52,702 nt of DNA. It comes from a virus. Lineage: Duplodnaviria; Caudoviricetes. The position numbers and the translations under genes were made by a program. The notes beneath the pieces are model-generated. The model searched no databases, had not been told where the DNA came from, and saw only the letters and a list, made by a program, of their open reading frames with translations. The DNA lies in IMG/VR virus record IMGVR_UViG_3300032277_000005, positions 1 through 52,702 of that record, one strand, 5' to 3'. The first letter of the stretch is position 1. Every line of letters starts with the position of its first letter. Shown here one piece after another: positions 128 through 52,643 of the stretch.

Positions 128-452
128 ACTCCTCGGCTACAGGGAAGGAAGCCCAGAAAACATTATCTGTAAGATAGACGCAATGCAAGATAGAGACTCA
201 ACTCTGTGGATAGGTGCATTCCGCTATTACTGTGGTCGCATGACAATAGCTGTAAGCGGATTTTGCGAAACAATGATCAGCAACATTGAAAACATTCCAG
301 ATGAAGCAGTGTCAATAATTAAGCGCGACCTAATTGAGGCTTTTGCTGATGACGACCGGGATCGCGAAGTTGGGAATGCCGTAAAACGACTTGGTATGGA
401 CTGCGATCGGCAGAAATGGCTGGAGGTTCTAGCCGCGATAAGCGGAGCCTAA
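90..452 (+). CDS. cassette-borne hypothetical protein
   Basis: ORF 57..452, likely ATG at 90; bounded by GTTAGGCTC (62) and GAGCCTAAC (445-453). Confidence 0.75.
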   Translation: MNDDELIAKISEKLLGYREGSPENIICKIDAMQDRDSTLWIGAFRYYCGRMTIAVSGFCETMISNIENIPDEAVSIIKRDLIEAFADDDRDREVGNAVKRLGMDCDRQKWLEVLAAISGA

Positions 453-499
453 CAAAGAGATAGACGGCGCACCGCGTCCGTTGCATCGAGGTGTTATGA
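447..499 (-). mobile_element. attC-like site (short family A)
   Basis: GCCTAAC...GTTATGA hairpin; shares AGAGAT..GCATCGAGG(T/C)GTTA with sites at 2317 and 44279. Confidence 0.8.
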
Positions 500-1812: not shown

Positions 1813-1875
1813 CCATAACGCCATAGCTAAATGGGCCACGCAGTTTGTGGCTCCAATTTCAGTGACTTGTTATAC
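1813..1875 (-). mobile_element. attC-like site
   Basis: Minus reading GTATAAC-AAGTC-ACTGAAAT...ATTTAGC-TATGGC-GTTATGG; 40 bp identical to the site at 45606. Confidence 0.9.
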
Positions 1876-5751: not shown

Positions 5752-5940
5752 ATGAAATTTGAAGATAGCACTGGATGGATTTGGTTTTTTGTTGACGAGT
5801 ATGGCGATGTAGGCACTGAATTTTTTTGGCTTGAAGAAAAGGAAGGTGAAATGCCGTACCAAATGGAAAAGGCTAGTTGGGATACTGAGAATAAAAGCTC
5901 TATACCAACAAGGGCAAGAATAGCGGAATTAAAGATATAA
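5752..5940 (+). CDS. cassette-borne hypothetical protein
   Basis: GGAGG RBS and ATG 5752; ends GTTATAT and ATATAAC. Confidence 0.7.
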   Translation: MKFEDSTGWIWFFVDEYGDVGTEFFWLEEKEGEMPYQMEKASWDTENKSSIPTRARIAELKI

Positions 5941-6022
5941 CCGCGGATTTAACCGGAGAGGAATGGAGCAATGAGTGAAACGAATAGCGGAATGACGAAT
6001 CCGGTTGAAACCTTTGTTAGGG
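5935..6022 (-). mobile_element. attC-like site (family B) encoding RBS, ATG and leader of the next gene
   Basis: ATATAAC...GGAG..ATGAGTGAAACG...GACGAATCCG...GTTAGGG. Confidence 0.85.
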
Positions 6023-6306
6023 TGCCGTGGCCTGAGGATAAATTGCCCTTGAAATTGAAAAACCCTAAGTGCCCGATTTGTGGCGGGGCATTATTTATTA
6101 CTGGGGTTAACGCTTGTGAGCAGGAGGATAACGGCGACTGGATAGCAAGCGAGATTGACATTGATTGCGAAAACGAGCCGGACATTGACAGTGACGAATG
6201 GGAAGACTGGCACAAGTGGCACTACAGCATGCCATATGTGGATTGGCTGCCGATAGACCGGCAGATTTTGAAAATGGTGCAGAGGACGTTTTACTTTGCA
6301 CCCTAA
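5971..6306 (+). CDS. cassette-borne zinc-ribbon protein starting inside attC
   Basis: CPICGG motif; ends GTTAGGGTGC and GCACCCTAAC. Confidence 0.7.
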   Translation: MSETNSGMTNPVETFVRVPWPEDKLPLKLKNPKCPICGGALFITGVNACEQEDNGDWIASEIDIDCENEPDIDSDEWEDWHKWHYSMPYVDWLPIDRQILKMVQRTFYFAP

Positions 6307-6360: not shown

Positions 6361-6383
6361 TTCGATTGTACAGATTCTAAGCT

Positions 6384-6445
6384 GTGAACTTATTTCACTT
6401 TATTTGTGTTATTTGCTTGACTATGTGAACTTAGTGCACTATAAT
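6384..6445 (+). promoter_or_regulatory. cassette-internal sigma70 promoter with two operator-like imperfect palindromes
   Basis: TTGACT(6417)-17 bp-TATAAT(6440); GTGAACTTATTTCAC (6384) and GTGAACTTAGTGCAC (6425). Confidence 0.8.
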
Positions 6446-6492
6446 TAGTTTCAAGAGTTAGGGAATGGCCCTAACAAAACGGAGCTAAGACA

Positions 6493-6681
6493 ATGATTAA
6501 ATCAGTAGACGAACTAAAAGCAGGCGACATTCTTAAAAACACTAATCATGGTTTTGAGATTGAAATTAAAGAGATTGGTAAAAAGAACACCCGCTACATC
6601 AACTTAGAGACTGGTGAGAAAGTAAAAAGCTTCACTACAAAATTCAACTTCATGCTACGCGAAGGAGTGTTTGTTAAGTGA
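6493..6681 (+). CDS. small basic hypothetical protein
   Basis: GGAG RBS; first gene of the promoter-bearing cassette. Confidence 0.7.
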   Translation: MIKSVDELKAGDILKNTNHGFEIEIKEIGKKNTRYINLETGEKVKSFTTKFNFMLREGVFVK

Positions 6682-41300: not shown

Positions 41301-43040
41301 AAGACTATGGGTAATATCACAAGGATAATGTCTGCGCTGAACACAAGCTACTCACCAGAATTTATTACGGGCAATTTTTTAAGGGATGTCCAAACCGCCG
41401 TGTTAAACCTAAAGGCCGAGCAAACAGCCAGTAGCGGGAAAATTAACGGTGAGGAAATTGTATCGCAGACGGTAAAAGATATTCCTTTAGCCATGCGGTC
41501 GGTGTATGCGTCTCTTTCTGGCAAGAAAATAAAAGGAGCCAAGGGTAAAGAGTTTCAAGATTGGTTTGAGGAGTTCAAGAAAGCTGGCGCTAAAACAGGC
41601 TGGTTTGACATGAAGGATCTCGACGGCCAAGCAAGAGAAGTAGAGCAGCTTGTCGAAATGTCCAGCGGCACCACGAAAGGCAATGCGTTGAAGTGGGCTA
41701 AATCCGCAGCAGGCGTTGTTGAAAATATGAATTCAGCGGTAGAGAACGCCGTTAGATTATCCGCTTACGTCAATGCTCGCAGAGCTGGAATATCTGAGCA
41801 AAAAGCGGCGTCTCTTGCCAAGAATATGACTGTAAATTTCAATCGAAAAGGGGAGGTAGGCGCGACACTAAACGCTCTATTCATGTTTAGTAACGCATCT
41901 ATCCAGGGTGTGGCCAACTTCGCTAGGACTATGGGGACGCTCAAAGGCGACAAATCGTTGAAGTGGCAAAACCTTAACAACGCGCAAAAGCTAGGCGTAG
42001 GTATGGCCGCAGGCGCTTTCTTCATTGCGATGGCTAACAGGTCTTCTGCTGGAGAAGATGACGACGGGGTAAACTGGTTCGACAAGGTGCCGGATTACGT
42101 CAAAGAGAGAAACATCGTCATTATGAAATCTTTGTTTGGGGGCGAGCAGGACGGCACATATTGGAAGATCCCGCTCCCTTATGGCTACAATATTTTCAAT
42201 GTCCTTGGTGATTCAATGGAGTCAGTGGCGTTTAGCGACAAGCCAGTCACTAATACAGCGGGAAGACTCACGCTTGCCACGCTTGGCTCATTCTCGCCTA
42301 TCGGGTTCCAAGACTCTAAAACCGTTATGGGCGGCGTATTAAAGAACGCGACCCCGACAGTATTTAAGCCGGTGACAGACATAGCTCTAAATGAGAACTT
42401 CTTTGGCAGCAGCATCTATAGTGAAAACTTCCCGTTTGGCACACCTAAGCCTGATAGCGCAATGGCTCGCAGGTCAACACCAGAAGGCTACCGCAAGGTG
42501 GCTGAATGGCTTAACGAAGGCACAGGCGGCAGCAAGCAGCGTCCAGGGGCTGTTGATATAAACCCCGATGTTATGAGGTACATCGCTGATTACTTTGGCG
42601 GGGCGGCTTACGGATTCTTCGGCTCTAAAGTCCCAGACGTAGTGCATCGCGCAATTAACGACGTTGATGTTGAAGTTAACAGAATGCCATTTGTTAGCCG
42701 TATATCGGGGCGAGTGATGCACTATGATGATATGGGCGACTTTTACGAGCGCAGGGATGAGATAAACCAGATCCACGCAGAGTACAAAACGCTTGAGGGT
42801 GGCGAGAGAGCCGGTTTTTACCGCAAGTATGGCGACAAGATGCGGTTATCCGCTGGAATTAAATCAGCAGAGAAGCGGCTAAAGCTGCTACGTAAGCAGC
42901 GTGACCGAGTGTACGCGAACGAAGATCTTAGCTTTGCGCAGAGGGATGAGAGATTGAAAGACGTACAAGCGAAGATGAAGAAGGTGGTTGACGAGATAAA
43001 TAAAAACTACAACAACGCCTTAACGAAGTCGCTGAAGTGA
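35343..43040 (+). CDS. giant polyvalent protein (zincin peptidase-like, ADP-ribosyltransferase-like and LPD38-like domains)
   Basis: 2565 aa; HEWAHMLDHY; HEIVGHMGL; AYHGSPH..GTGEGAQAYG; WYHGT..F..FD; C-terminal KIPLPYG..NENFFGSSI. Confidence 0.8.
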   Translation: MSKVSCINTTANLDKRDVKTFKADIKSGAKPEDVVEILISDALAEHESLLEIIRSKGGVVEGYVPPVEELKPAADVKGEEIEATKVGKKKPRATPPEKKAQAAKKTEAKPSPTSARPGILTESKAKIIRSMAKDAGVKKGSPGYEDAMTEIASKYDDELERAEFSLPFEEFKALPDNGRTSDEQLRVIYDSVREELGIKEKTAAPVDEPLDEEVRFQIAVDDSNQAIIDEIDELSKKAKARKAESEPEGMSIDLVLPELDYLSDKEKTRFHDLKQSLPSQGQEATDAKARNKARVAARKNAKEKTVELADTSDVGGEMSFNRRGKGITASEIRNTENETERVALAVKSKLWKRPDYQVMVDEGVQPAIAHVIKQIYDSIPTKPPFTGDKYLNAYAETVEATRQAIDDVLLNPKKLAAIMAAINVQIQKRQAVFGGKGMDISELMNKALDPVTGADPLESITDIVFPENDEGARWGRKNVEGNDKANATNNLYKNTTISVEMLTKALIAIDKKGWPAKQESWQRSYRIEEKDGEFRLIKNKRYTPESIHKSKDDAIEAARALTKKSKDDKFKEPETPVENSRRLGDDSRGGRNVSSKELQERFGLKAINFGNWMSKPAAAKERQGHVNSAYDALSDLAITLNLPDKAMSFDGQLGLAIGAQGAGGRNAAHFVAGVNEINLTRTSGAGSLAHEWAHMLDHYFGVQSGMAASSDPFASWATLGVRKIKEGSEIRPEMAEAFGTIVEVMRKKKESIEAMKAREQKHADLAVESLSKFIDSNDIRSIVAGDKDAEAALANIEKGGKSDYTEWPPVGRRRKPEGYTSADVKLIADLAGWDFAKADKLNSEAGAVRVYVGDSKMAQKQLTLHTDFYRNASGLESKSGKPYWTTPHEMFARAFETYVTDKLDGKDKLNSYLVSEWKNNTDGEMEALFNDGPNFRYPRDADRAAINEAFDTLIGGIKTKETDSGVALYSRNYKTNPAAATVAEINAELSTAVSRLDKAIKQRVQIVQTTSDLPVDVPTDVRGMYYDGIAYVVADNTPVSDAKTVLTHEIVGHMGLEEMLGDSFSDVIGKIKRMKRVGNKQVAEIVKTLKRSYVDENGNYALTPNQEAREILAHIAETDHNHSLVKQIIAKLKLWLARMGLANKDSAEVGYLIAQAARYVEGKGDAVLITSTGNIEPYFAKAYHGSPHKHDGRLDPSKIGTGEGAQAYGYGYYVAESEKVADSYRVQLSDAKVTFDGKVAKDPYHVEEGRMIKESYRIEIAEIALSLRGRYKNNKGNMQKAIIENGAKYINDRDSLSQYRKDTNYVLSNLDRFDYEKGHLYEYEIDDDAISKMLDWDAPLSEQSDSIQGVAARELALETGITPAHENFEAMVGLAKNQLNAKTGEDLYKSMVNRLGMDAEVSPDEIASRYLWAEGVPGIKYYDGQSRGEGEGTRNFVIFPGAEDIATPISRNGVMFSRETPGTPEYEAAKAKGLDMSKKARMQRARDMGFDTDTVWYHGTGRQFSSFDPKAEGEFSSIDTNNVVTFTTDENIAKRYAKESAVSEKQWDDELNRYIKNGNPRIVEAYLPSNIKNIDAIGRHHDSKWMIGEQEKARNQGFDGVRFNGLADDVYYNPLAGASDITQIFDPSNIRSVNAAFDPMEKDSAELLFSRGDGNWKDDSTGFAIPDETWKTVAIRKLQDKFKVLKDLQANIIESGGEISEEANAYIAEELFHGKAENDIAIMRDEFVAPMAEKMAESGITQAQLDKYLYALHAEERNDHIASINPDMPDGGSGMKTSKAKKIIADIEQGGKAADYKDLAGIVHAMLRERRRVIIDGGLEDDGLIDAWEDKYKNYVPLKGFAENELDDSRPKTGQGFNIGGKESKRALGRGSEAASPSSFAIIDLTETLVRNRKNEVGNALLKLIEDNPQESYWASYTEDNPDTDRRIVKVDGKDVVKETVIPMALMKDQYFTTKRNGKTHYMKLEDPRLMDAMKNLGVEHGGTVIKTMGNITRIMSALNTSYSPEFITGNFLRDVQTAVLNLKAEQTASSGKINGEEIVSQTVKDIPLAMRSVYASLSGKKIKGAKGKEFQDWFEEFKKAGAKTGWFDMKDLDGQAREVEQLVEMSSGTTKGNALKWAKSAAGVVENMNSAVENAVRLSAYVNARRAGISEQKAASLAKNMTVNFNRKGEVGATLNALFMFSNASIQGVANFARTMGTLKGDKSLKWQNLNNAQKLGVGMAAGAFFIAMANRSSAGEDDDGVNWFDKVPDYVKERNIVIMKSLFGGEQDGTYWKIPLPYGYNIFNVLGDSMESVAFSDKPVTNTAGRLTLATLGSFSPIGFQDSKTVMGGVLKNATPTVFKPVTDIALNENFFGSSIYSENFPFGTPKPDSAMARRSTPEGYRKVAEWLNEGTGGSKQRPGAVDINPDVMRYIADYFGGAAYGFFGSKVPDVVHRAINDVDVEVNRMPFVSRISGRVMHYDDMGDFYERRDEINQIHAEYKTLEGGERAGFYRKYGDKMRLSAGIKSAEKRLKLLRKQRDRVYANEDLSFAQRDERLKDVQAKMKKVVDEINKNYNNALTKSLK

Positions 43041-43183
43041 AAAAACAAAGAACAGGCCGACGCGATAAAGAACGGGATAAGGCATCCGGCACCCAGCACC
43101 ATTAGCTCAGGTGTGCTGGAAAGCCACGCCAAGATAAACAAAGCAATGGACGCTATAAGCAAGCTTGGTATAAACCGTTTCAA
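43007..43183 (-). CDS. small two-TM membrane protein (not in ORF track)
   Basis: TTG start; MKRFIPSLLIASIALFILAWL..LGAGCLIPFFIASACSLFF. Confidence 0.4.
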   Translation of the reverse strand: MKRFIPSLLIASIALFILAWLSSTPELMVLGAGCLIPFFIASACSLFFHFSDFVKALL

Positions 43184-43217
43184 AGTCAGCCCCTATGTTA
43201 AGTAAGGGCTGATTATA

Positions 43218-43430
43218 TCACTCTCCAGCTTTCGCTATAAATTCACCGCACCACCATATCTCTCGAACTGTCGGGAAGTAAAAATTATAAGTGTCGAGAA
43301 ATGCAAGCTCGCTATCTTGCGCCTGTCTTACAGGAGGGTATCGCCTACATTCCCCTAGCGTGAAAATTTCGTCGTCTCCATCGGAAAGAAAATCCCAGTA
43401 TTTGCAATCAATACATTTATCCTTTTTCAT
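43218..43430 (-). CDS. small Cys-rich phage protein
   Basis: CIDCKYW..GECRRYPP..WCGEF. Confidence 0.7.
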   Translation of the reverse strand: MKKDKCIDCKYWDFLSDGDDEIFTLGECRRYPPVRQAQDSELAFLDTYNFYFPTVREIWWCGEFIAKAGE

Positions 43431-43433
43431 GGG

Positions 43434-43715
43434 CTAATCAAACTTCTCAAGCTCAAACTCAAACCGGCTAGGCTTTCGCGTCGCTTCAACCTCGATAGTC
43501 TCATAGGTATTAGTGTTGTTATTATAAGTCTCTATCGTTGTCGTCCCTCCGTATGTCCTTACACTATCCACGTCAATATCCTTTGTTCGCCCGGTTGAGT
43601 GGTTGTAGGTGCGTATATTCTGCCCTGCCTCCACTCCCGCCGGCTCTTTCCAGTAGTCGCTGGCCGAGGCTGTGACTGTGGTCGTTGCTAGCATTGTCGC
43701 CATAAGTAGTTTCAT
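43434..43715 (-). CDS. exported hypothetical protein
   Basis: Signal peptide MKLLMATMLATTTVTASA. Confidence 0.6.
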   Translation of the reverse strand: MKLLMATMLATTTVTASASDYWKEPAGVEAGQNIRTYNHSTGRTKDIDVDSVRTYGGTTTIETYNNNTNTYETIEVEATRKPSRFEFELEKFD

Positions 43716-43734
43716 TGTATATCCCTATTGTTGA

Positions 43735-43989
43735 TTAATGTACAATCTCTTCGCTTGTCAAATCCTCGCTACAAAGTCTAACCATGGTTAGCAAATACTC
43801 GAGGTCTAAGGACAGTCGCCCAAGCCAATCCAGGTCTTCTGTATGCGCAGCTATTTCTTCGGAAATACAGCTTAAAGCATAGTCCAGCTCATTGGACGCC
43901 TCTCGTGTATCTTCCAAAATACTGATCTCAGTCAACAGGCTGGCAAGTTTGGTAATTAAATTAGACTCATTGTGCTTATTTTGTGTCAT
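43735..43989 (-). CDS. hypothetical protein
   Basis: GAGG RBS; helical acidic ORF. Confidence 0.6.
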   Translation of the reverse strand: MTQNKHNESNLITKLASLLTEISILEDTREASNELDYALSCISEEIAAHTEDLDWLGRLSLDLEYLLTMVRLCSEDLTSEEIVH

Positions 43990-44032
43990 AATATCCTCTC
44001 TCCGATTGGCGGTTTCACATCCCGCTATCCTT

Positions 44033-44058
44033 ATCCCGCTTAATTGCGGGATTTTTTT
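44033..44058 (+). terminator. intrinsic terminator (plus orientation)
   Basis: ATCCCGC-TTAATT-GCGGGAT-TTTTTT. Confidence 0.65.
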
Positions 44059-44278
44059 GTCTAAACATCACCTACCAATACTTTCTTAATAACCTCAAGC
44101 CTCTCCTCGTCCTTGGCCTTTTCACGATTGCCTTGCTTGGCTGATGATTTTCTCCATAGCGTCAATTGCTGCCATCACTGTGCCTGGTTGTGCTGTTAGT
44201 TGTTTATTCATTGGTTGCCTCGTTTTTAAATTGATCAGCAATGTCCGCGAATATGATCGTCTTGCCGTATAATTATGT

Positions 44279-44327
44279 ATATAACACCTCGATGCAGCGG
44301 GCGGAGCCGCCGATCTCTTTGTTAAAT
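44279..44327 (+). mobile_element. attC-like site (family A)
   Basis: ATATAAC-ACCTC-GATGCAGC..GCCGATC-TCTTT-GTTAAAT. Confidence 0.8.
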
Positions 44328-44519
44328 TGCCGCAAACTCAGATACAACCGTGTTTTCGTAAGAATTCCCCTCAGTTGTCATCCAGTGAAAGTTGCCGTCC
44401 TCGTCTTTTTCCCAGTACGCGACAGCTTTGCGCCAATTAGTTTTTATCAAATAATGAGTGTGGCGCTTTGGTTTGGCGGTCCCGTTATTTACAATCCAGT
44501 TAATCGTTTGTTTTGCCAT
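44322..44519 (-). CDS. cassette-borne hypothetical protein
   Basis: MAKQTINW..; ends GTTAAATTG (44321) and CAATTTAAC (44532). Confidence 0.7.
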   Translation of the reverse strand: MAKQTINWIVNNGTAKPKRHTHYLIKTNWRKAVAYWEKDEDGNFHWMTTEGNSYENTVVSEFAAI

Positions 44520-44533
44520 CAATCGAACCCTCA

Positions 44534-44590
44534 ATTTAACAAAGCAGTCAAAACGACTGCGTAAACTTGCGTTTTACCTCGTGGTTATGC
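44534..44590 (+). mobile_element. attC-like site
   Basis: ATTTAAC-AAAGC-AGTCAAAA...TTTTACC-TCGTG-GTTATGC. Confidence 0.85.
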
Positions 44591-44785
44591 GCCTTTCTTT
44601 AAGGCTCTTTTACTGTAGTCTCTGTATATTTTGTGGCCGCATTTCCAGCACCTTGGTTCGCTCTTAGCAGTAGATTTGGCTGTGTCATAGCCACAGTTGC
44701 CACAAGGCTCGTACCATATATCAAAATCACGTAGCGCATAACAACGCGCTGAACTCGGATTCGTCTCTTTACTCGCTTCGCTCAT
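44585..44785 (-). CDS. cassette-borne zinc-ribbon protein starting inside attC
   Basis: MSEASKETNP.. with CGNC and CWKC; ends GTTATGCGC and GCGCATAAC. Confidence 0.7.
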   Translation of the reverse strand: MSEASKETNPSSARCYALRDFDIWYEPCGNCGYDTAKSTAKSEPRCWKCGHKIYRDYSKRALKKGA

Positions 44786-44817
44786 TTCGTTCCTCACCGG
44801 TTAGCTCAAGGTTAGGC
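44736..44817 (+). mobile_element. attC-like site (family B, leader-encoding)
   Basis: GCATAAC-AACGC-GCTGAACT-CGGA...CCGGTTAGC-TCAAG-GTTAGGC. Confidence 0.9.
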
Positions 44818-45063
44818 GCTAGGGCCGTAGGACTCAAATTCAACCCAGTCAGAAATCATCTGCCAAACTTGGTTATACATAGGCCAGTCTTTCTCGACCA
44901 CAACACAGTCAATGTCAGCGCAATCTCCAGAGTCAAGATCCTTATCAGGCTGCTTGATACTTGATAGCTCCAATAAAATATTATTGAGCTTCAGCTTTGA
45001 CTCAGTGGGCAGCAAATCAATATCTTTCCTCTTGAGTACTAAGTACCTATTTTCACGTTCCAT
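44812..45063 (-). CDS. cassette-borne phage hypothetical protein
   Basis: MERENRYLVLKRKD..CVVVEKDWPMY; ends GTTAGGCGC and GCGCCTAAC. Confidence 0.7.
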   Translation of the reverse strand: MERENRYLVLKRKDIDLLPTESKLKLNNILLELSSIKQPDKDLDSGDCADIDCVVVEKDWPMYNQVWQMISDWVEFESYGPSA

Positions 45064-45082
45064 AATTCTCACTCCGTAACGC

Positions 45083-45154
45083 GCCTAACAACAAATTGTT
45101 GCAGACTGTTCAATCGCTGCGCTCAATCACAGCGGCAAAATAAAAAGGTTAGCT
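45083..45154 (+). mobile_element. attC-like site
   Basis: GCCTAAC-AACAA-ATTGTTGC...GCAAAAT-AAAAAG-GTTAGCT. Confidence 0.85.
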
Positions 45155-45367
45155 GCCCTTAAACTTCTGCATTATTTCTTTGCATTTATCAATATCACCA
45201 CTTCGCCTAAGATCGTCTATATCCATCTCACCCATAGCTCGTCTATCTTCTGACCAAGGGTCGCCATCGTGTTCGTATTCATCATAATCAATTACCGCGT
45301 TTAGAAGCAGCTCAAAAGCAGCTAACAACACGTTCAAATCTGACTCGCTACACTTCGTTTCGCTCAC
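45149..45367 (-). CDS. cassette-borne protein starting inside attC
   Basis: AGGAG RBS and GTG start within attC; ends GTTAGCTGC and GCAGCTAAC. Confidence 0.7.
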   Translation of the reverse strand: MSETKCSESDLNVLLAAFELLLNAVIDYDEYEHDGDPWSEDRRAMGEMDIDDLRRSGDIDKCKEIMQKFKGS

Positions 45368-45388
45368 AATTTAACTCCTACGTTATAC
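45320..45388 (+). mobile_element. attC-like site (leader-encoding)
   Basis: AGCTAAC-AACAC-GTTCAAAT...ATTTAAC-TCCTAC-GTTATAC. Confidence 0.9.
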
Positions 45389-45392
45389 GGCT

Positions 45393-45584
45393 TTATCTGC
45401 TGCTGGTAACATCACAGCCGTGTTCTTGGAGCCACTTTTTTACAACGTAGTGAAATTGACGGTGGATTACGTCTATAGCCGCTTTGCTGACCTCGGGCCT
45501 CATCGGCGACTCTTCTAAATTCTTAAGTTTAAGCTGGTCGAGCAGCGCCTTAGCGTCCGCGTCTTGGATAATAATTGCTCGCAT
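45393..45584 (-). CDS. cassette-borne hypothetical protein
   Basis: AGGAG RBS; ends GTTATACGGC and GCCTTATAAC (9/10 complementary). Confidence 0.7.
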   Translation of the reverse strand: MRAIIIQDADAKALLDQLKLKNLEESPMRPEVSKAAIDVIHRQFHYVVKKWLQEHGCDVTSSR

Positions 45585-45605
45585 TGGTCTCTCCTACCTG
45601 TCGCC

Positions 45606-45670
45606 TTATAACAAGGCACTGAAATTGGAGCCACAAACTGCGTGGCCCATTTAGCTTGATTGCGTTATGC
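45606..45670 (+). mobile_element. attC-like site
   Basis: TTATAAC-AAGGC-ACTGAAAT...ATTTAGC..GTTATGC; 40 bp identical (inverted) to 1825..1864. Confidence 0.9.
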
Positions 45671-45838
45671 GCCCATAGCCCTTAAGCAAAGCTTGCATGT
45701 GACTTTAGTTTTTCTGGTTGTCGTTCCTTTTCTCACATACCCGCAGGCCGCTCCGTCATAACCTCTATCTCGATAATCGCGTACAGCGTAATCAGGTGCG
45801 TTTTTTAAAATTGTCGGGTCGTAGTAATGTACTTTCAT
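45665..45838 (-). CDS. cassette-borne 57-aa protein (not in ORF track)
   Basis: MKVHYYDPT..ACG..VTCKLCL; GAGG RBS; ends GTTATGCG and CGCATAAC. Confidence 0.65.
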   Translation of the reverse strand: MKVHYYDPTILKNAPDYAVRDYRDRGYDGAACGYVRKGTTTRKTKVTCKLCLRAMGA

Positions 45839-45863
45839 TTCACGCCTCTAATGTATTAAATTC

Positions 45864-45919
45864 GCATAACAAGTCGTCAATCGGACGGCTGCGCCAGCCG
45901 GTTACTTTTGGCGTTATGC
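45864..45919 (+). mobile_element. attC-like site
   Basis: GCATAAC-AAGTC-GTCAATCGGACGGCTG..CAGCCGGTTAC-TTTTGGC-GTTATGC. Confidence 0.85.
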
Positions 45920-46177
45920 GCCAAGTCTTCGTATTATGGCGGCAATTTTCTTTGTCATCGTTCCCCAAAAGCTGCCGTTAATCCATTCGTAGTTGGCACC
46001 TCTATCTTGGGTTTCAACAACTTTTGCACACTCTTCAATGGCCTCCGATCTAACGTCTGCCAATATCTTTAAATGATCGCTGTATCTAACCCATTCGCCA
46101 GCGGCGTCTACCTTTTCAAAAAGGCTCTGTCCCGTGTTGGGGCAATACCCAACGTCAAATTCATATCTATCAACCAC
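45914..46177 (-). CDS. cassette-borne phage protein (second gene of a two-gene cassette)
   Basis: GEWVRYSDH..AIEECAK..IAAIIRRL. Confidence 0.65.
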   Translation of the reverse strand: MVDRYEFDVGYCPNTGQSLFEKVDAAGEWVRYSDHLKILADVRSEAIEECAKVVETQDRGANYEWINGSFWGTMTKKIAAIIRRLGA

Positions 46178-46364
46178 AGCAACCTCCGTTCACTTTCTCA
46201 GCGTCTTTATATTCTTTGTCAATATCTTCTATTAACCCAACCTCAATTAACGGTATAGGCGTCCCATCTTCTAAGGTGGGTCGCCCGCACCATCCGCACC
46301 GATAGCGCATAACAACACGCTCAAGGCTCGCCTTCGGCTGGACTTCGTTCTTCGCTTCGCTCAT
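46170..46364 (-). CDS. cassette-borne protein starting inside attC
   Basis: MSEAKNEVQ..; CGWCG; cassette ends GTTATGCGC (45913) and GCGCATAAC (46305). Confidence 0.65.
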   Translation of the reverse strand: MSEAKNEVQPKASLERVVMRYRCGWCGRPTLEDGTPIPLIEVGLIEDIDKEYKDAEKVNGGCCG

Positions 46365-46391
46365 CTCTCGCCCCTTAGCTCTGGGTTATAT
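46307..46391 (+). mobile_element. attC-like site (family B, leader-encoding)
   Basis: GCATAAC-AACAC-GCTCAAGG...CCTTAGC-TCTGG-GTTATAT. Confidence 0.9.
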
Positions 46392-46625
46392 TTCCTTATC
46401 TAGTTCTGTTTTAGTCACGTATATACAATCACCTTCGCAAGAGTAATCGGCGTAAAATATCCAACCATCATCCTTGCCGTAATCGCGCTCTTCGTAATCC
46501 ACTGGATCTCTGGCGTAGTCTTTTGCTTTAGCCTTCGCCCATTCAACAGCCTTGTCAGCGTCAGTAAATGGGTGCGCGGTTGTATCTCTATGCCTGTCCT
46601 TCCAAATCGCTATGTAAATTTCCAT
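46386..46625 (-). CDS. cassette-borne hypothetical protein
   Basis: Ends GTTATATTT and AAATATAAC. Confidence 0.7.
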   Translation of the reverse strand: MEIYIAIWKDRHRDTTAHPFTDADKAVEWAKAKAKDYARDPVDYEERDYGKDDGWIFYADYSCEGDCIYVTKTELDKEI

Positions 46626-46647
46626 ACTTGCAAACCTCTTAGTTAAA

Positions 46648-46677
46648 ATATAACCAGGCGCTCAACTCGGATTCGTC
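46648..46677 (+). mobile_element. half attC site (R''-L'' arm only)
   Basis: ATATAAC-CAGGC-GCTCAACT-CGGATTCGTC matches the left arm of 44736; no L'/R' follows. Confidence 0.65.
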
Positions 46678-46833
46678 GCTATTCTCACCCCGCAAAACAC
46701 CTTTCTCGCACAATATGCGCTTTCTCATATAGCCCAGACTCAACAATCATTTCGGCAGATTCTTTGTTCATAGTGCCAGATAGACACCATCGCGGGTTAT
46801 CGTCCCCGGTGTACCAGTATTTGATTCTGTACA

Positions 46834-47895
46834 TTAAATACCATCCATAACGCTATTAGCGAAGCGTACAAGCCCAATATCTAACGATTCAATCAGCGCA
46901 GCCCTTTGTGCCTCGTTTGCCTCTTCCAGTATCTCAGCGGCCCCTGTTGTATCTTCACCCTCACAAGCCTCTGTAAGCGCGTCTAGCATATCGCGGTATG
47001 TTGCCCATCCTTTGTCCTCTATCGCCTTGCAGAGCTGCTTACCTTTCGTCTTATCGCCCTTCGGGAATGAGTTATACAGGGAGATTTTTATCATGTCGTC
47101 GAGTTCACGCCACCACAGCACATAATCAACCGGGTCGCCTTTGAGTAGTTCGTGGAATGTATTGGCTTGCTCTTTCGAGTGCTGGAGGTATTCGACCTCA
47201 CCAGTATCAAGACTTTCAAGCCCTTCATGCTGGTTGAGAATGTTAATGGCTTCCTCAATACGAGCCAAGCCACCAGACTGAGGCCATGACTTGTAAGCGC
47301 GTTTGATTAGCGTTTTCTTCGCCATCTCCCCGGCCCACTTGCCAGCCCACGGGCCGCCTCTAGCCTTTGATGAGTTTCTGACCTCTAGTATTTCGCCAGC
47401 GGTCATGCGGTCAACAAGATAGCCGCCAGATGTAAGTTTAGCCACACAGTACCCACCTATCAGGTTTTTTAGAGGGTTGGCAGCGTCAAACCTATTCGGG
47501 TCAAAAGCCTTAAATTCATGGCCGGGAATTTCAGTCATACTCTTCCACGTCACTACGTCGCCTTCGTATGCAAGCTCTGCTTTTGCCCATTCAATAGCCC
47601 CGGCATCTGTGGCTAGTTTAACCAATCCCTTAAAACTAAGATCAAGGCAAACCATGCCGCCACGAGGCACCAGATAGGCGTGAGCAGACGCAGGGTTCAA
47701 GCTAATGCCAATGGCGGCCACGTTTAAAATTGCGTTACGCAGTGAGTCCTGGTTATTCTCCGCCGTCTTTAGTGTTAAATCGTTTTTCATTATCTGTTGC
47801 TTGGCAAACAGACATTCAGTTTCAAACACTAAATTATAGTTATTCTGCTTGGCAAACGACTCTTTTAATTCAACTAACTGATTAACGATGCTCAT
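46834..47895 (-). CDS. recT: RecT-family single-strand annealing protein
   Basis: AAIGISLNP..AYLVPR..SFKGLVKLA..EMAKKTLIKRAYKSWP; likely ATG at 47895. Confidence 0.85.
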   Translation of the reverse strand: MSIVNQLVELKESFAKQNNYNLVFETECLFAKQQIMKNDLTLKTAENNQDSLRNAILNVAAIGISLNPASAHAYLVPRGGMVCLDLSFKGLVKLATDAGAIEWAKAELAYEGDVVTWKSMTEIPGHEFKAFDPNRFDAANPLKNLIGGYCVAKLTSGGYLVDRMTAGEILEVRNSSKARGGPWAGKWAGEMAKKTLIKRAYKSWPQSGGLARIEEAINILNQHEGLESLDTGEVEYLQHSKEQANTFHELLKGDPVDYVLWWRELDDMIKISLYNSFPKGDKTKGKQLCKAIEDKGWATYRDMLDALTEACEGEDTTGAAEILEEANEAQRAALIESLDIGLVRFANSVMDGI

Positions 47896-48155
47896 TATGC
47901 TTCCCCTATGCTTGCAACGTAGTCGAGACATTTTTTCTCGATGAGTTTTGGCCAAATATCCATGTCACTTATGTTTAAGTCCTGCCATGTGGTCAATAGC
48001 GTTACGTCAGCAACTTCAAGCGTTGGGCCTCCTGCTGGCTCGCTATCTTCAACAGCCCCGGTAAGTTTTGCCGGCGTGCCGGGGAAATACTCGAACTCAA
48101 TCTCAACAGGCACATTGCCATCCCCAATCTCAGTTTTTAGTGTGTAGTCAGGCAT
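47895..48155 (-). CDS. hypothetical protein
   Basis: Coupled ORF. Confidence 0.6.
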   Translation of the reverse strand: MPDYTLKTEIGDGNVPVEIEFEYFPGTPAKLTGAVEDSEPAGGPTLEVADVTLLTTWQDLNISDMDIWPKLIEKKCLDYVASIGEA

Positions 48156-48421
48156 TAGTCTTCTCCGATTAGTAATTTATCAACAATAGCCGCACGTTTC
48201 TTGTCGCCCTTGAGTCGCCACGCCTCGGCAGCCGCTAGCATTGTTCCCGGTAACGCAGTGAGACTGCCTAGTGCTTTTTCCCTATCCGGTCGCCTATCCC
48301 CAGGCGGGGTAGACAGTGCCTCCTCCTCAGTCCAGCCGCGGCGTACGCGCTGATGAACAAGTTCTGAATCAAGCCCCATACGCTCGGCCTTCTGCTTTAG
48401 CGTACCCACAAAGCGGCTCAC
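48155..48421 (-). CDS. small HTH-like protein
   Basis: TLKQKAERMGL..RVRRGWTEEEAL. Confidence 0.55.
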   Translation of the reverse strand: MSRFVGTLKQKAERMGLDSELVHQRVRRGWTEEEALSTPPGDRRPDREKALGSLTALPGTMLAAAEAWRLKGDKKRAAIVDKLLIGED

Positions 48422-48651
48422 AGTAGCGCCTCCAGTTCTTTCTGTGCCATTTCGATTCGATTTTGTACTGCTTCGACCTTTAGCGCTTTGAGCGCGTCAC
48501 TCTCTGCGCGGGCGTCGATAATATTAAATTCAACCTCAATAACGTCTGACACCAGAATATATTCGTTGTTGTAACTGCCAATCTTCCCCACACCTTCGGC
48601 TCCATGCTTTATATGCCGATAAATCCCTACCTTTACTTTTTGTGCTGTCAT
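48418..48651 (-). CDS. hypothetical protein, first gene of the leftward operon
   Basis: GGAG RBS and ATG at 48651. Confidence 0.6.
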   Translation of the reverse strand: MTAQKVKVGIYRHIKHGAEGVGKIGSYNNEYILVSDVIEVEFNIIDARAESDALKALKVEAVQNRIEMAQKELEALL

Positions 48652-48679
48652 GCTTTCTTCTCCGTTTGCTTGAGAGCTA

Positions 48680-48708
48680 ACAATAGCACCGCGCATTTAA
48701 GAATGCAA
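48680..48708 (-). promoter_or_regulatory. leftward early promoter
   Basis: TTGCAT-17 bp-TATTGT on the minus strand. Confidence 0.6.
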
Positions 48709-48722
48709 TGGTTTATATACGC

Positions 48723-48750
48723 TTGACATATAAGGGCAGCATGCTAGAGT
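48723..48750 (+). promoter_or_regulatory. rightward early promoter
   Basis: TTGACA-16 bp-TAGAGT with extended -10 TG. Confidence 0.6.
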
Positions 48751-48772
48751 GTTGGCTCAATAAGGAGATCCA

Positions 48773-48934
48773 ATGAAATATTTACTAGCACCTGTGAACT
48801 TAACCAAAGAGCAGCACACATGGCTTGCGAAGCAAAGCAAAGACACGCTTGAATCTAAATCAGTGATTATTCGCCGTCTAATCCAGTCTGAAATGGACAA
48901 GGCAAGCGCGTTTATTAAGAAGGGCGAGTCATGA
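48773..48934 (+). CDS. ribbon-helix-helix (CopG/Arc-like) regulator (not in ORF track)
   Basis: AGGAG RBS; MKYLLAPVNLTKEQHTWL..SKSVIIRRLI. Confidence 0.55.
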   Translation: MKYLLAPVNLTKEQHTWLAKQSKDTLESKSVIIRRLIQSEMDKASAFIKKGES

Positions 48935-49113
48935 AAGTCTACATAATATGCGCAATTATCTTGGTTGTAGCATTCTTGCAAGGCTGCGGCTATGACGACG
49001 AGACCCTTGCTGCCGAGCATTATGTAAGCATGGTGTGTTCTGGGGCGTGGCCAGATTATCGAAGTGTACAGCCTGATTGCACAATACCGCCAGCACGACC
49101 AAATCAATACTAA
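48931..49113 (+). CDS. small lipoprotein
   Basis: Signal peptide with LQGC lipobox. Confidence 0.6.
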   Translation: MKVYIICAIILVVAFLQGCGYDDETLAAEHYVSMVCSGAWPDYRSVQPDCTIPPARPNQY

Positions 49114-49163
49114 CGCCATGGCTAGCCGGAGAGGAGCGAAATGAGCAAAGCGAATGAAGACGA
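49108..49163 (-). mobile_element. half attC site (L'-R' arm, family B)
   Basis: TACTAAC-GCCATG-GCTAGCCGGAGAGGAGCGAAATGAGC.. resembles the corresponding arm of 44736 and 5935. Confidence 0.6.
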
Positions 49164-49239
49164 TTGACCACCAACACCTAGTCGGATTATAATTAACGTA
49201 GGAAACCGACTTCCTACCTCTGGGCCTTCCCTCCCAGGC

Positions 49240-49275
49240 AAAAAACCCTAGTCCTTCTCCGTGCTGGGGTTTTTT
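49240..49275. terminator. bidirectional-looking terminator
   Basis: AAAAAACCCTAG...CTGGGGTTTTTTT. Confidence 0.55.
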
Positions 49276-49407
49276 GCGTCCGGATACAAATAATTCCAGC
49301 CTAATACTTGTTTTCTGAAAGCAGGTATATACACCAAATAAATACCACAGTAATCCGCATTCATGATTTGAATGTTGATAATGTTCGCGTATAGATTATA
49401 CTAATTC

Positions 49408-49461
49408 AGCTCACCTAGCCTTAGCGGGCGAACGACAGACTTATCACCTGTCTGGTGAGTG
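49408..49461 (+). ncRNA. candidate structured 5' leader RNA
   Basis: CTCACC/GGTGAG outer stem enclosing GCC..GGC and GACAG..CTGTC hairpins; TTGATA-16 bp-TATACT promoter just upstream. Confidence 0.45.
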
Positions 49462-49503
49462 CTTTAACTTTCGATACAAACCTAATTGATAGAGGTTGTA
49501 CCT

Positions 49504-52149: not shown

Positions 52150-52578
52150 ATGATGGAGATTGAAAAAATTGGCGAGTTAATCAAGACCCAGGACAATCGG
52201 ATAACCGACCAGCCTATTTTTATCGTGCAGCAAAAACACAGGGAATGGGGTTATGACTCTGCTTATTGTGATGATTACAAATGGCTAGAAACTGAAAGCG
52301 GTGACTACTGTGAAGCAGATGAAGAAATAATTGAAGAACTTGAAATTAAAGAAAATGAATTGTTTGAAAGCACAAAGCCGTATGAAAAACACTATTACAA
52401 GGATCATTGGAAATTTGTAACTTCATGCTTCACAGAGCAAGGTTGCAAAGATTACATTGAAAGTAATGGGCACAATTTGAGAGAGCCAAGAATTTACGCT
52501 GAAGGTAGTTATAGAAATGAAGAATTTAGGGCAGTACGAAATATGCTAATTGAGCAGGCCGCCTGCAAGGCTGCTTAA
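52150..52578 (+). CDS. cassette-borne Ead/Ea22-associated-type phage protein
   Basis: TQDNRITDQP..FVTSCFTEQGCKDYI..NGHNL..PRIYA..SYRNEE; ends GTTAAGCA and TGCTTAAC. Confidence 0.7.
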   Translation: MMEIEKIGELIKTQDNRITDQPIFIVQQKHREWGYDSAYCDDYKWLETESGDYCEADEEIIEELEIKENELFESTKPYEKHYYKDHWKFVTSCFTEQGCKDYIESNGHNLREPRIYAEGSYRNEEFRAVRNMLIEQAACKAA

Positions 52579-52643
52579 CCCTTAAAGCAGCGCGTTGATT
52601 TGAGCGCAGCGAAAAGCAATCCGCCTGACTTTTGTTGTTAGGC
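52573..52643 (-). mobile_element. attC-like site (same locus as 1..68)
   Basis: GCTTAAC...GTTAGGC. Confidence 0.85.

Follow-up and report, generated by a model that had tools for sequence, protein, structure and literature searches.

At the platform site attI1 of class 1 integrons, ORF-11, ORF-17 and ORF-18 combine a Shine-Dalgarno (SD) sequence and an ATG within the recombination site, from which a short open reading frame (ORF) runs across the core of the adjoining cassette; as outlined in PMC8876359, these ORFs support cassettes that bring no initiation region of their own and sometimes produce N-terminal fusions. Short ORFs within attC, the site carried by the cassettes, are described as relieving the barrier formed by the attC stem-loop in mRNA (Jacquier et al. 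2009, as cited in PMC8876359 and PMC11511950). Clusters of attC sites lacking an integron integrase (CALINs) are known from virulent phages, where attC separate small phage genes and intI is missing (Qi et al. 2023; PMC9892861); the phage CALINs reported in section 3.4 of that article hold at least two attC each, one of them three, and recombination by IntI1 was reported for two tested attC of phage PH101 (PMC9892861). The subject here is the window, the whole 52,702-nucleotide stretch of IMG/VR virus record IMGVR_UViG_3300032277_000005, a complete 52.6-kb phage genome in which a subfamily of attC-like sites, called MSE-type for the first residues of the leader they encode, holds the start codon of the gene that follows. 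An MSE-type attC probably doubles as the translation initiation region of its own downstream cassette gene.

In the mechanism proposed, the small accessory genes of this phage would be integron-type cassettes in which attC lies 5' of its own gene. The coding strand would be the attC bottom strand, and the predicted crossover, AA|C in the proximal core, would mostly fall just past the TAA of the upstream gene. The variable central loop of the MSE-type subfamily would have turned into an initiation region, a purine-rich SD followed by ATG AGY GAA RCG, in which ribosomes would initiate; they would enter the cassette ORF by way of the distal L/R arm and the GTTRRRY core. Each protein would thus bear 14-22 N-terminal residues dictated by the recombination site, and the module would constitute the only SD and start of the gene, cutting the stop-to-start gap from about 75-100 to 21-30 nt. 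The leader peptide itself is probably unimportant.

Anatomy of the MSE-type sites

The initial annotation, made from the letters of the window, placed start codons at 5971, 44785, 45367, 46364 and 49141, and all five are present there. Starts inside attC-like sites, as it described them, are confirmed: four sites that are longer than the others carry an SD tract and ATG or GTG AGY GAA in the central loop, and the ORF continues through the distal arm and the GTTRRRY core. These sites and their ORFs are as follows; the bit scores are those of the covariance model R1 presented below, to whose training set the four sites belonged.

5935..6022, plus strand: MSE-type site of 88 nt, R1 39.6 bits, with SD GGAGAGG at 5955-5961
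5971..6303, plus strand: ORF of 111 aa with a CPICGG motif, beginning at ATG MSETNSGMTNPVETFV; residues 1-17 encoded by the site
44736..44817, minus strand: MSE-type site of 82 nt, R1 56.7 bits; proximal core GCCTAAC, with the upstream TAA stop inside it, and distal core GTTATGC
44791..44795, minus strand: SD-like GAGGA, 5 nt ahead of ATG 44785
44588..44785, minus strand: zinc-ribbon-like ORF of 66 aa, beginning at ATG 44785 MSEASKETNPSSARCY; residues 1-16 encoded by the site
45320..45388, minus strand: MSE-type site of 69 nt with a GTG start, R1 51.4 bits
45375..45379, minus strand: SD AGGAG, 7 nt ahead of GTG 45367
45152..45367, minus strand: ORF of 72 aa of the YEHDGDPWSED family, beginning at GTG, read as M, SETKCSESDLNVLL; residues 1-15 encoded by the site
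46307..46391, minus strand: MSE-type site of 85 nt, R1 48.7 bits; proximal core ATATAAC, with the upstream TAA stop inside it, and distal core GTTATGC
46173..46364, minus strand: RCGWCG ORF of 64 aa, beginning at ATG MSEAKNEVQPKASLERVV; residues 1-19 encoded by the site
49108..49167, plus strand: proximal half of an MSE-type site, with the proximal arm, SD and ATG and without distal arm or core; its leader ORF at 49141, MSKANEDD followed by a stop, has 8 codons
46650..46693, minus strand: distal half of an MSE-type site, a remnant that matches the half site at 49108-49167 and shares 80% identity with 44738-44781

The SD-like tracts of the four full starts (GAGG, AAGG(GG), AGGAG and GAGG) lie 6-9 nt upstream of the start codon. 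A 13-mer, RTGAGYRAARCGA, is common to all five starts and occurs five times in the window and nowhere else, against 0.05 occurrences expected from 100 shuffles. The distances from start codon to core G are 45, 43, 41 and 51 nt, so that the ORFs cross the core at codon positions 1, 2, 3 and 1. The three reading frames reported in the initial annotation are thus real, although they do not serve as the independent support for inverted polarity that was drawn from them, as random fusions would also give three frames.

The half site at 49108-49167 comes after a plus-strand pair of small genes (48773-49113) that read, from their translations, as ribbon-helix-helix-like and lipoprotein-like. It looks like a deletion remnant, because locus L016 (1722-2214) has a complete MSE-type site and gene at the equivalent place; the DNA of L016 that is 88% identical to window 48899-48964 lies about 330 nt upstream of that complete site and gene. 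An inversion with the two half sites as its ends was considered and set aside, as re-inverting the interval would place the RecT operon on the opposite strand.

attC identity and strand polarity

The sites were characterized from a MAFFT alignment of 19 of them in gene-sense orientation, after a crude initial core-pair scan had proved too noisy and was dropped. RNAalifold returned no structure from the raw alignment, so a 13-pair structure was written by hand and the covariance model R1 was built on it. The structure leaves 83% of the alignment cells paired, compared to 26-50% when the partners are slid, and in the inner helix formed by the L box, where 90.2% of cells are paired, five of the six pairs have changed on both sides. 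All 19 sites, each an imperfect palindrome bounded by RYYYAAC and GTTRRRY, contain TAAC and GTTA without exception. R1 finds 20 distinct sites in the window, every one on the strand of the adjoining genes, with antisense scores of at most 12 bits, and when the gene-sense strand is folded as DNA its bulged bases are in the 3' arm, the asymmetry of an attC bottom strand.

The strand was decided by comparison with canonical class 1 sites. R1 gives the aadA1 attC of R100 49.9 bits on the complement of the aadA1 coding strand, against 9.6 bits on that coding strand itself, and it gives the R46 attC behind oxa2, aadA1, oxa2 and orfD 30.1, 29.5, 19.7 and 14.0 bits, all opposite the cassettes and with no more than 7 bits on the other strand. 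The polarity test thus draws on five canonical sites from two plasmids, together with the comparisons of context given below. Because R1 matches the canonical attC (5/5) solely on the strand opposite their genes, the phage sites are, by this comparison, attC-like and the phage genes are on the attC bottom strand, as the inverted polarity proposed in the initial annotation requires. Hairpins for RNase III-type processing, or plain terminators, were considered as another identity for the sites and rejected on account of the strand-specific match to canonical attC and of the cassette-like changes of context.

Phage PH101 (Pseudoalteromonas phage H101; NC_029094, 75919-77987) contains four R1 sites, all on the strand of the annotated genes; because these sites too lie on the gene strand, coding on the bottom strand may be the rule for phage attC arrays.

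The cassette unit and its mobility

Crossover in attC takes place at G|TT of the top strand, as stated in PMC9892861. With the bottom strand coding, crossover would therefore fall at AA|C of the proximal core, and the predicted unit is C-site-(SD-ATG)-ORF-TAA. Recurrence of single units in several neighbourhoods, with junctions at the core, agrees with this prediction. The MSE-type site and its 111-aa gene (5935-6306) are found in five neighbourhoods, namely the window, G001/L023, L066, L074 and L080/L084. In each of the five contexts the sequence before TAAC differs, and so does the sequence past CCCTAA|C, including different next attC sites. Between the window and G001, the upstream flank matches at 21 of 48 positions and the stretch from L box to distal core, with the SD and leader, at 74 of 75, compared to 233 of 281 nt in the rest of the ORF (P 1.3e-5). 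A second unit, the two-ORF cassette 45913-46390, recurs at 97-100% identity in contigs of four other sequencing runs (three labelled seawater metagenome and one unlabelled; contigs of DNA or unknown kind, with no RNA run among those listed). In two of these, from runs X2 and X3, the match ends at 45913, where the C of the next proximal core lies, with 102 and 52 nt of contig left beyond it. Because one site-and-gene unit recurs in differing contexts with breaks at proximal cores, the site, and hence the leader, is judged from these alignments to belong to the downstream gene and to move with it, as had been proposed at the outset.

The opposite assignment, by analogy with ORF-11, would keep the canonical polarity: the site would belong to the upstream cassette, crossover would occur in the distal core, and the leader would be fused to the next gene by chance. 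Modules before different genes do lose their homology abruptly at the distal GTTA, random fusion would likewise produce three crossing frames, and ORF-11 and ORF-18 of attI1 provide a precedent, as presented in PMC8876359. This assignment is nevertheless extremely unlikely, given that R1 matches the five canonical attC on the bottom strand alone and that the site stays constant with the downstream gene in five contexts, in which the upstream gene and the downstream site change. The breaks of the X2 and X3 contigs at the next proximal core, and the co-inheritance of leader and gene in 45367/P0027 and in L021/L105, also speak against it.

Use of the start within the site

Further modules were collected with a search pattern, and matches in metagenome contigs were held to a site-likeness rule (a T[AG]ACCGG L box and T[GA]TTA 30-75 nt past the ATG). 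Viral contigs gave 10 matches in 9 contigs, all 10 opening ORFs of 82-111 aa, and bacterial and archaeal genomes gave 26, of which 25 are not attC-like by R1 and one is a real site (L031). Among the 58 matches in metagenome contigs, 36 failed the site-likeness rule, 21 are site-like and one is cut by a contig end; R1 matched the module in 11 of 12 non-duplicate site-like loci at E <=0.01, the twelfth being L064, whose contig begins inside the site. Pooled with the window these make 36 modules, which are counted as 24 distinct proteins and as families because several loci are the same contigs in two collections. For 22 of the 24 distinct proteins the ORF reads through the core into an ORF of 63-111 aa (truncated in one case by the end of the contig), and the post-core parts of these 22 fall into 16 families without BLASTP relation to one another.

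The two remaining modules open short ORFs and precede genes with an SD and ATG of their own. The leader ORF of L031 is 19 aa long and ends 3 nt short of the next ATG, which has an AGGAG of its own; that of L085 has 6 aa and ends inside the site, and its gene carries GAGGA and an ATG 27 nt past the core. L031 (2612-4443) is a contig of a Desulfobulbaceae metagenome-assembled genome, and a pair that reads, from its translations, as toxin-antitoxin-like adjoins the module.

The frame into the gene is kept through insertions and deletions. From the ATG to the conserved Arg codon of RCGWCG the window has 51 + 12 nt and L019 has 41 + 10 nt, and the leader of L114 is 6 nt longer with the frame kept. 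Five modules (L016, L017, L021, L023 and L059) have lost the proximal-core AAC and retain the SD, ATG and leader in frame, which suggests that the expression role can outlive the recombination role. The claim that the site supplies expression signals is supported by this comparative survey, and we infer that the in-site ATG is the start actually used.

Several points weigh against that reading. The search pattern was derived from the window's own sites, so that one site lineage was sampled. Two of the 24 modules open an ORF of only 6 or 19 aa, and in such short-leader modules the in-site ATG can be vestigial or can open an upstream ORF. Two of the four ORFs in the window have conceivable other starts: the 46364 ORF has an in-frame ATG within the distal core (46310-46308), and the relatives L013 and L014 start MSKLYRCGWCG, 4 residues before the conserved motif, while the 5971 ORF has an internal ATG, as well as a GTG and TTGs past the core. 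The nucleotide conservation of SD and leader could stem from constraint at the DNA level rather than from translation. Lastly, the phage has no tyrosine recombinase of its own, as neither TIGR02249 (integron integrase) nor PF00589 (other tyrosine recombinases) gives a match in the complete phage record; action of a host integron integrase on the phage sites would have to be supposed.

Some of these points would fit an alternative in which the leaders are untranslated or unneeded and translation really begins in the distal core or past it, with the in-site ATG a side effect of conserving a DNA motif. The core ATG of the 46364 ORF and the start of its attC-less homologues would agree with it, as would the in-frame GTG and TTG past the core of the 5971 ORF, the short leader ORFs of L031 and L085, and the site at 1352-1425, where the core ATG is indeed used. 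Against this, the 44785 ORF has no in-frame ATG, GTG or TTG past the core (an in-frame GTG at 44797 lies 12 nt upstream of its ATG), and the next ATG of the 45367 ORF comes only at residue 45. Moreover, modules are in frame with the gene in 22 of 24 cases where one in three would be expected, frame-keeping indels are seen, and the post-core candidates lack an SD, except for TTGs at +27 and +33 in the 5971 ORF. Starts in or beyond the core, with leaders untranslated or unneeded, are improbable, and initiation within the site is retained as the preferred explanation.

Homologues and conservation of the leader

A check suggested at the outset was whether homologues lack or vary the MSE leader, and distant homologues of all four window proteins do lack it. 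Of 25 proteins found for the 5971 family, 22 were aligned, P0011, P0014 and P0025 being dropped as fragments of 66-69 aa that cover at most 50% of the query. The leader is retained in full by five members at 91-93% identity; a further five, at 57-70%, begin with N-termini that differ from it and vary in length, four of them retaining the residues encoded around the core; and twelve distant members begin about 10 residues ahead of the CPICGG motif. L012, a relative of the 44785 protein without attC, starts 4 residues ahead of the conserved part. In the 45367 family a leader of the same type occurs in one of five relatives (P0027, 66% identical) and is lacking in the other four; viral contigs yielded no homologue of the 45367 protein. 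Searches of ten leader proteins against Pfam and PHROGs gave nothing above cut-off; below it were a weak zinc-ribbon match in Pfam for 44785 and a weak phrog_4074 match for L015. Because the distant homologues do without it, the leader appears in these alignments as an add-on from the site and not as part of the protein families.

Among the modules of 41 nt, the SD and first five codons are invariant, without synonymous variation in those codons, and between the window and G001 the SD and leader are more conserved than the gene body. In the pair L021/L105 the leader is identical at 12 of 15 residues and the first 40 residues of the body at 36. Because the peptide varies further along and is read in three frames, the constraint is on nucleotides; what is constrained could be initiation efficiency, how the site folds, or the two together. 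A functional peptide tag, for instance for targeting or stability control of the accessory proteins, would be in keeping with leaders of the MSEAKSDESxLxxLL kind on at least nine unrelated protein families. It is very unlikely in view of the fact that only the first 4-5 residues are universal, the remainder varying and being read in three frames, and that the L021/L105 leader is less well kept than the body; the distant homologues, too, do without it.

Conservation might otherwise be explained at the level of DNA. The DNA mini-hairpin GCGAAGC has exceptional stability. The codons AGC GAA GCG of MSE(A/T) hold this heptamer, which may nucleate folding of the single-stranded site, and the frame would then merely exploit the motif. 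GCGAAGC also forms the apex of the aadA1 attC bottom strand, and the absence of synonymous variation and the conservation of SD and leader above the gene body would suit such a role. However, three modules (5971, 45367 and L085) have GTGAAAC or GCGAAAC instead, the DNA folds put the apex elsewhere, and the SD and the maintenance of frame are left unexplained. As the explanation of the conservation the motif is quite unlikely, although it is compatible with a site that also initiates translation.

Folding and coupling to upstream termination

The initial annotation further proposed that the mRNA hairpin may gate translation: the attC hairpin would hide the initiation region until a ribosome terminating at the upstream TAA melts it. 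The upstream stop does lie in the proximal core, 21-30 nt ahead of the start, and the L-box stem includes the first three SD bases (GGA of CCGGAGAGG) in its pairing. The site at 5935-6022 folds stably as RNA (-22.3 kcal/mol, z -3.0 relative to shuffles), the upstream ORF of G001 enters the site and stops at a TGA overlapping ATGAGTGA, and the L031 leader ORF ends just before the next ATG. The RNA folds of the other three MSE-type sites, in contrast, are no better than shuffles (z +0.6, +0.5 and +1.0), and in DNA folds all four sites are at or above the shuffle mean. Apart from that first GGA, the SD and start are in an unpaired, purine-rich loop of 30-45 nt. The mean unpaired probability from -20 to +14 is 0.40-0.49 at the MSE starts and 0.43-0.65 at 12 ordinary starts of this phage, with overlapping ranges, and published effects of attC on downstream expression are mostly small according to PMC11511950. 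A hairpin switch on translation is thus not supported by the modelled folds and is unlikely.

Initiation coupled to termination is plausible at MSE-type sites because stop-to-start gaps are 21-30 nt there, compared to about 75-100 nt at ordinary sites, and because of the G001 overlap and the L031 arrangement. Overall, the initial annotation is partly supported: its account of the sites, their polarity and their travel with the gene stands, and its appeal to three frames and its hairpin gate are not supported.

The phage genome and its other sites

The record is classed as a complete virus with direct terminal repeats, and its first and last 127 bases are identical. The phage gene content includes a large terminase (TerL), a RecT-type recombinase and a protein of 2565 aa. 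TerL is less than 50% identical to that of isolated phages, and no close relatives among isolate phages were found by megablast of 10000-33000; blastn of the arm 43000-49500 against isolate phages gave matches to the RecT gene only. The RecT relatives L001-L005 (50-60% identity) contain no R1 sites at E up to 1.

Small genes occupy the plus strand between about 52070 and about 7200, across the ends, and the minus strand between about 48700 and 43200. The 20 attC-like sites and two half sites of the window are all co-oriented with the small genes that they separate, and the full sites form two arms, 52070-7185 (plus strand, through the ends) with 12 sites and 44279-46391 (minus strand) with 8, flanking a block of structural genes (7186-44278) that has no R1 site. 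There is no intI beside the arrays, which a complete integron would have together with attI, and each arm, with two or more close attC sites without intI, corresponds to a CALIN. In 15 of the 20 sites the TAA within the proximal core ends the upstream ORF, and at 11 ordinary sites an SD and ATG lie 19-36 nt past the distal core. The sites other than the MSE-type are these.

447..499, plus strand: attC-like, ordinary; R1 37.8 bits
1352..1425, plus strand: attC-like; R1 42.9 bits; the downstream ORF begins at the distal-core ATG (1422)
1813..1875, plus strand: attC-like, ordinary; R1 50.1 bits
2070..2130, plus strand: attC-like, ordinary; R1 46.4 bits
2317..2369, plus strand: attC-like, ordinary; R1 30.9 bits
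5091..5151, plus strand: attC-like, ordinary; R1 58.8 bits
5680..5738, plus strand: attC-like, ordinary; R1 55.4 bits
6301..6360, plus strand: attC-like, ordinary, final site of the plus-arm run; R1 47.4 bits
7124..7185, plus strand: attC-like, ordinary; R1 51.1 bits
52070..52133, plus strand: attC-like, ordinary; R1 37.2 bits; outside the training set and found by the model
52573..52643, plus strand: attC-like, ordinary, across the terminal repeat (also matches as 1-68); R1 39.1 bits
44279..44327, minus strand: attC-like, ordinary; R1 33.3 bits
44534..44590, minus strand: attC-like, ordinary; R1 41.6 bits; SD and ATG 21 nt past the core
45083..45154, minus strand: attC-like, ordinary; R1 36.1 bits; SD and ATG 26 nt past the core
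45606..45670, minus strand: attC-like, ordinary; R1 45.4 bits; SD and ATG 28 nt past the core
45864..45919, minus strand: attC-like, ordinary; R1 33.3 bits; SD and ATG 32 nt past the core

At 1352-1425 the distal core GTTATGG supplies the ATG of the ORF at 1422-1811; nearby, at 1408, ATGAGCAAG has no SD, is out of frame and would give only 24 aa. The sites at 1813-1875 and 45606-45670 are in opposite arms and have nearly identical centres of about 40 nt, which suggests recent copying or exchange between the arms. Direct repeats (TGTGAACTTA...) at 6383-6405 and 6424-6446, 41 nt apart, follow the last cassette of the plus arm and precede the gene at 6493; they look like operators or a promoter region. 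Beyond the window, arrays of 5-12 R1 matches each are present in L066 (940-7588), L015 (2340-12295) and L080 (335-2294), and those of L066 are on both strands in two blocks, as in the window. One of the runs in which the cassette 45913-46390 recurs also contains, at a depth of 195, a further MSE-type site that joins window-like centre and arm segments.

Significance and comparison with known systems

The usual cassette consists of a gene followed by attC and relies on the promoter of the platform; here the site precedes the gene and would bring its ribosome-binding site and start. This would explain how cassettes without an initiation region of their own could be expressed anywhere, and, if this is correct, gene units that are complete and self-translating could be carried from phage to phage by a host integron integrase. 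The recombinogenic strand would also be the non-template, displaced strand in transcription, and about 45 nt of DNA would serve both as a hairpin arm for recombination and as protein-coding sequence, in three frames. The MSE module would amount to an expression adaptor of natural origin, joined to 16 or more unrelated genes, and as such a candidate ready-made part that unites recombination site and initiation region. With 20 sites in 52.6 kb and similar arrays in related contigs, integron-type exchange is indicated as a driver of mosaicism among phage accessory genes, and gene callers or integron finders that assume top-strand genes would assign wrong starts or orientations in such phages. It is tentatively suggested that there is a phage lineage with 5'-attC, bottom-strand cassettes of its own, in which recombination site, spacer and start (SD, ATG and about 15 codons) form one portable module that host integrases may move between phages.

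The canonical aadA1 attC (In2 of R100 and In1 of R46) and the phage sites share the RYYYAAC and GTTRRRY cores, the L-box helix, in which one arm has an additional base, and sequence overall. The aadA1 gene, however, is on the top strand, 5' of its attC, whereas the phage genes are on the bottom strand, 3' of theirs. Compared to the CALINs of Qi et al. (2023), as they are described in PMC9892861, the two divergent arms of the present phage contain 20 full sites, among them a subfamily in which the start of the gene is encoded. The words 'translation' and 'start codon' are absent from the main text of PMC9892861, whose supplementary attC coordinates and strands may record orientation relative to genes, and in the literature searched there was no report of cassette ORFs that start inside attC with a conserved leader.

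The attC ORFs attributed to Jacquier et al. (2009) resemble the phage sites in that translation from inside attC affects the next gene, and L031 comes close to that case. As related in PMC8876359 and PMC11511950, those ORFs lie in the upstream cassette's attC, transcribed as the top strand, and act by termination and reinitiation; unlike the phage MSE-type sites, they form no conserved leader family and supply no in-frame N-terminus. A further likeness is with attI1 ORF-11, as depicted in PMC8876359, since both place an SD and ATG within an integron recombination site and send an ORF across the core. ORF-11, though, is part of a platform site, has the crossover inside the ORF and stays behind when cassettes move. 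In the phage the site is an attC and the predicted crossover, put by the comparisons of polarity and context in the proximal core, is upstream of the SD and hence not spanned by the ORF; the module moves with the gene, and the leader is fused in frame in 22 of 24 cases instead of closing as a mini-peptide. A short peptide ending near the next start is found at none of the four sites in the window and, outside it, only in L031 among 20 distinct proteins. The phage system is therefore different from the known cases in having attC 5' of its own gene, a crossover upstream of the SD, a leader that is usually in frame, and a single site lineage serving at least 16 gene families.

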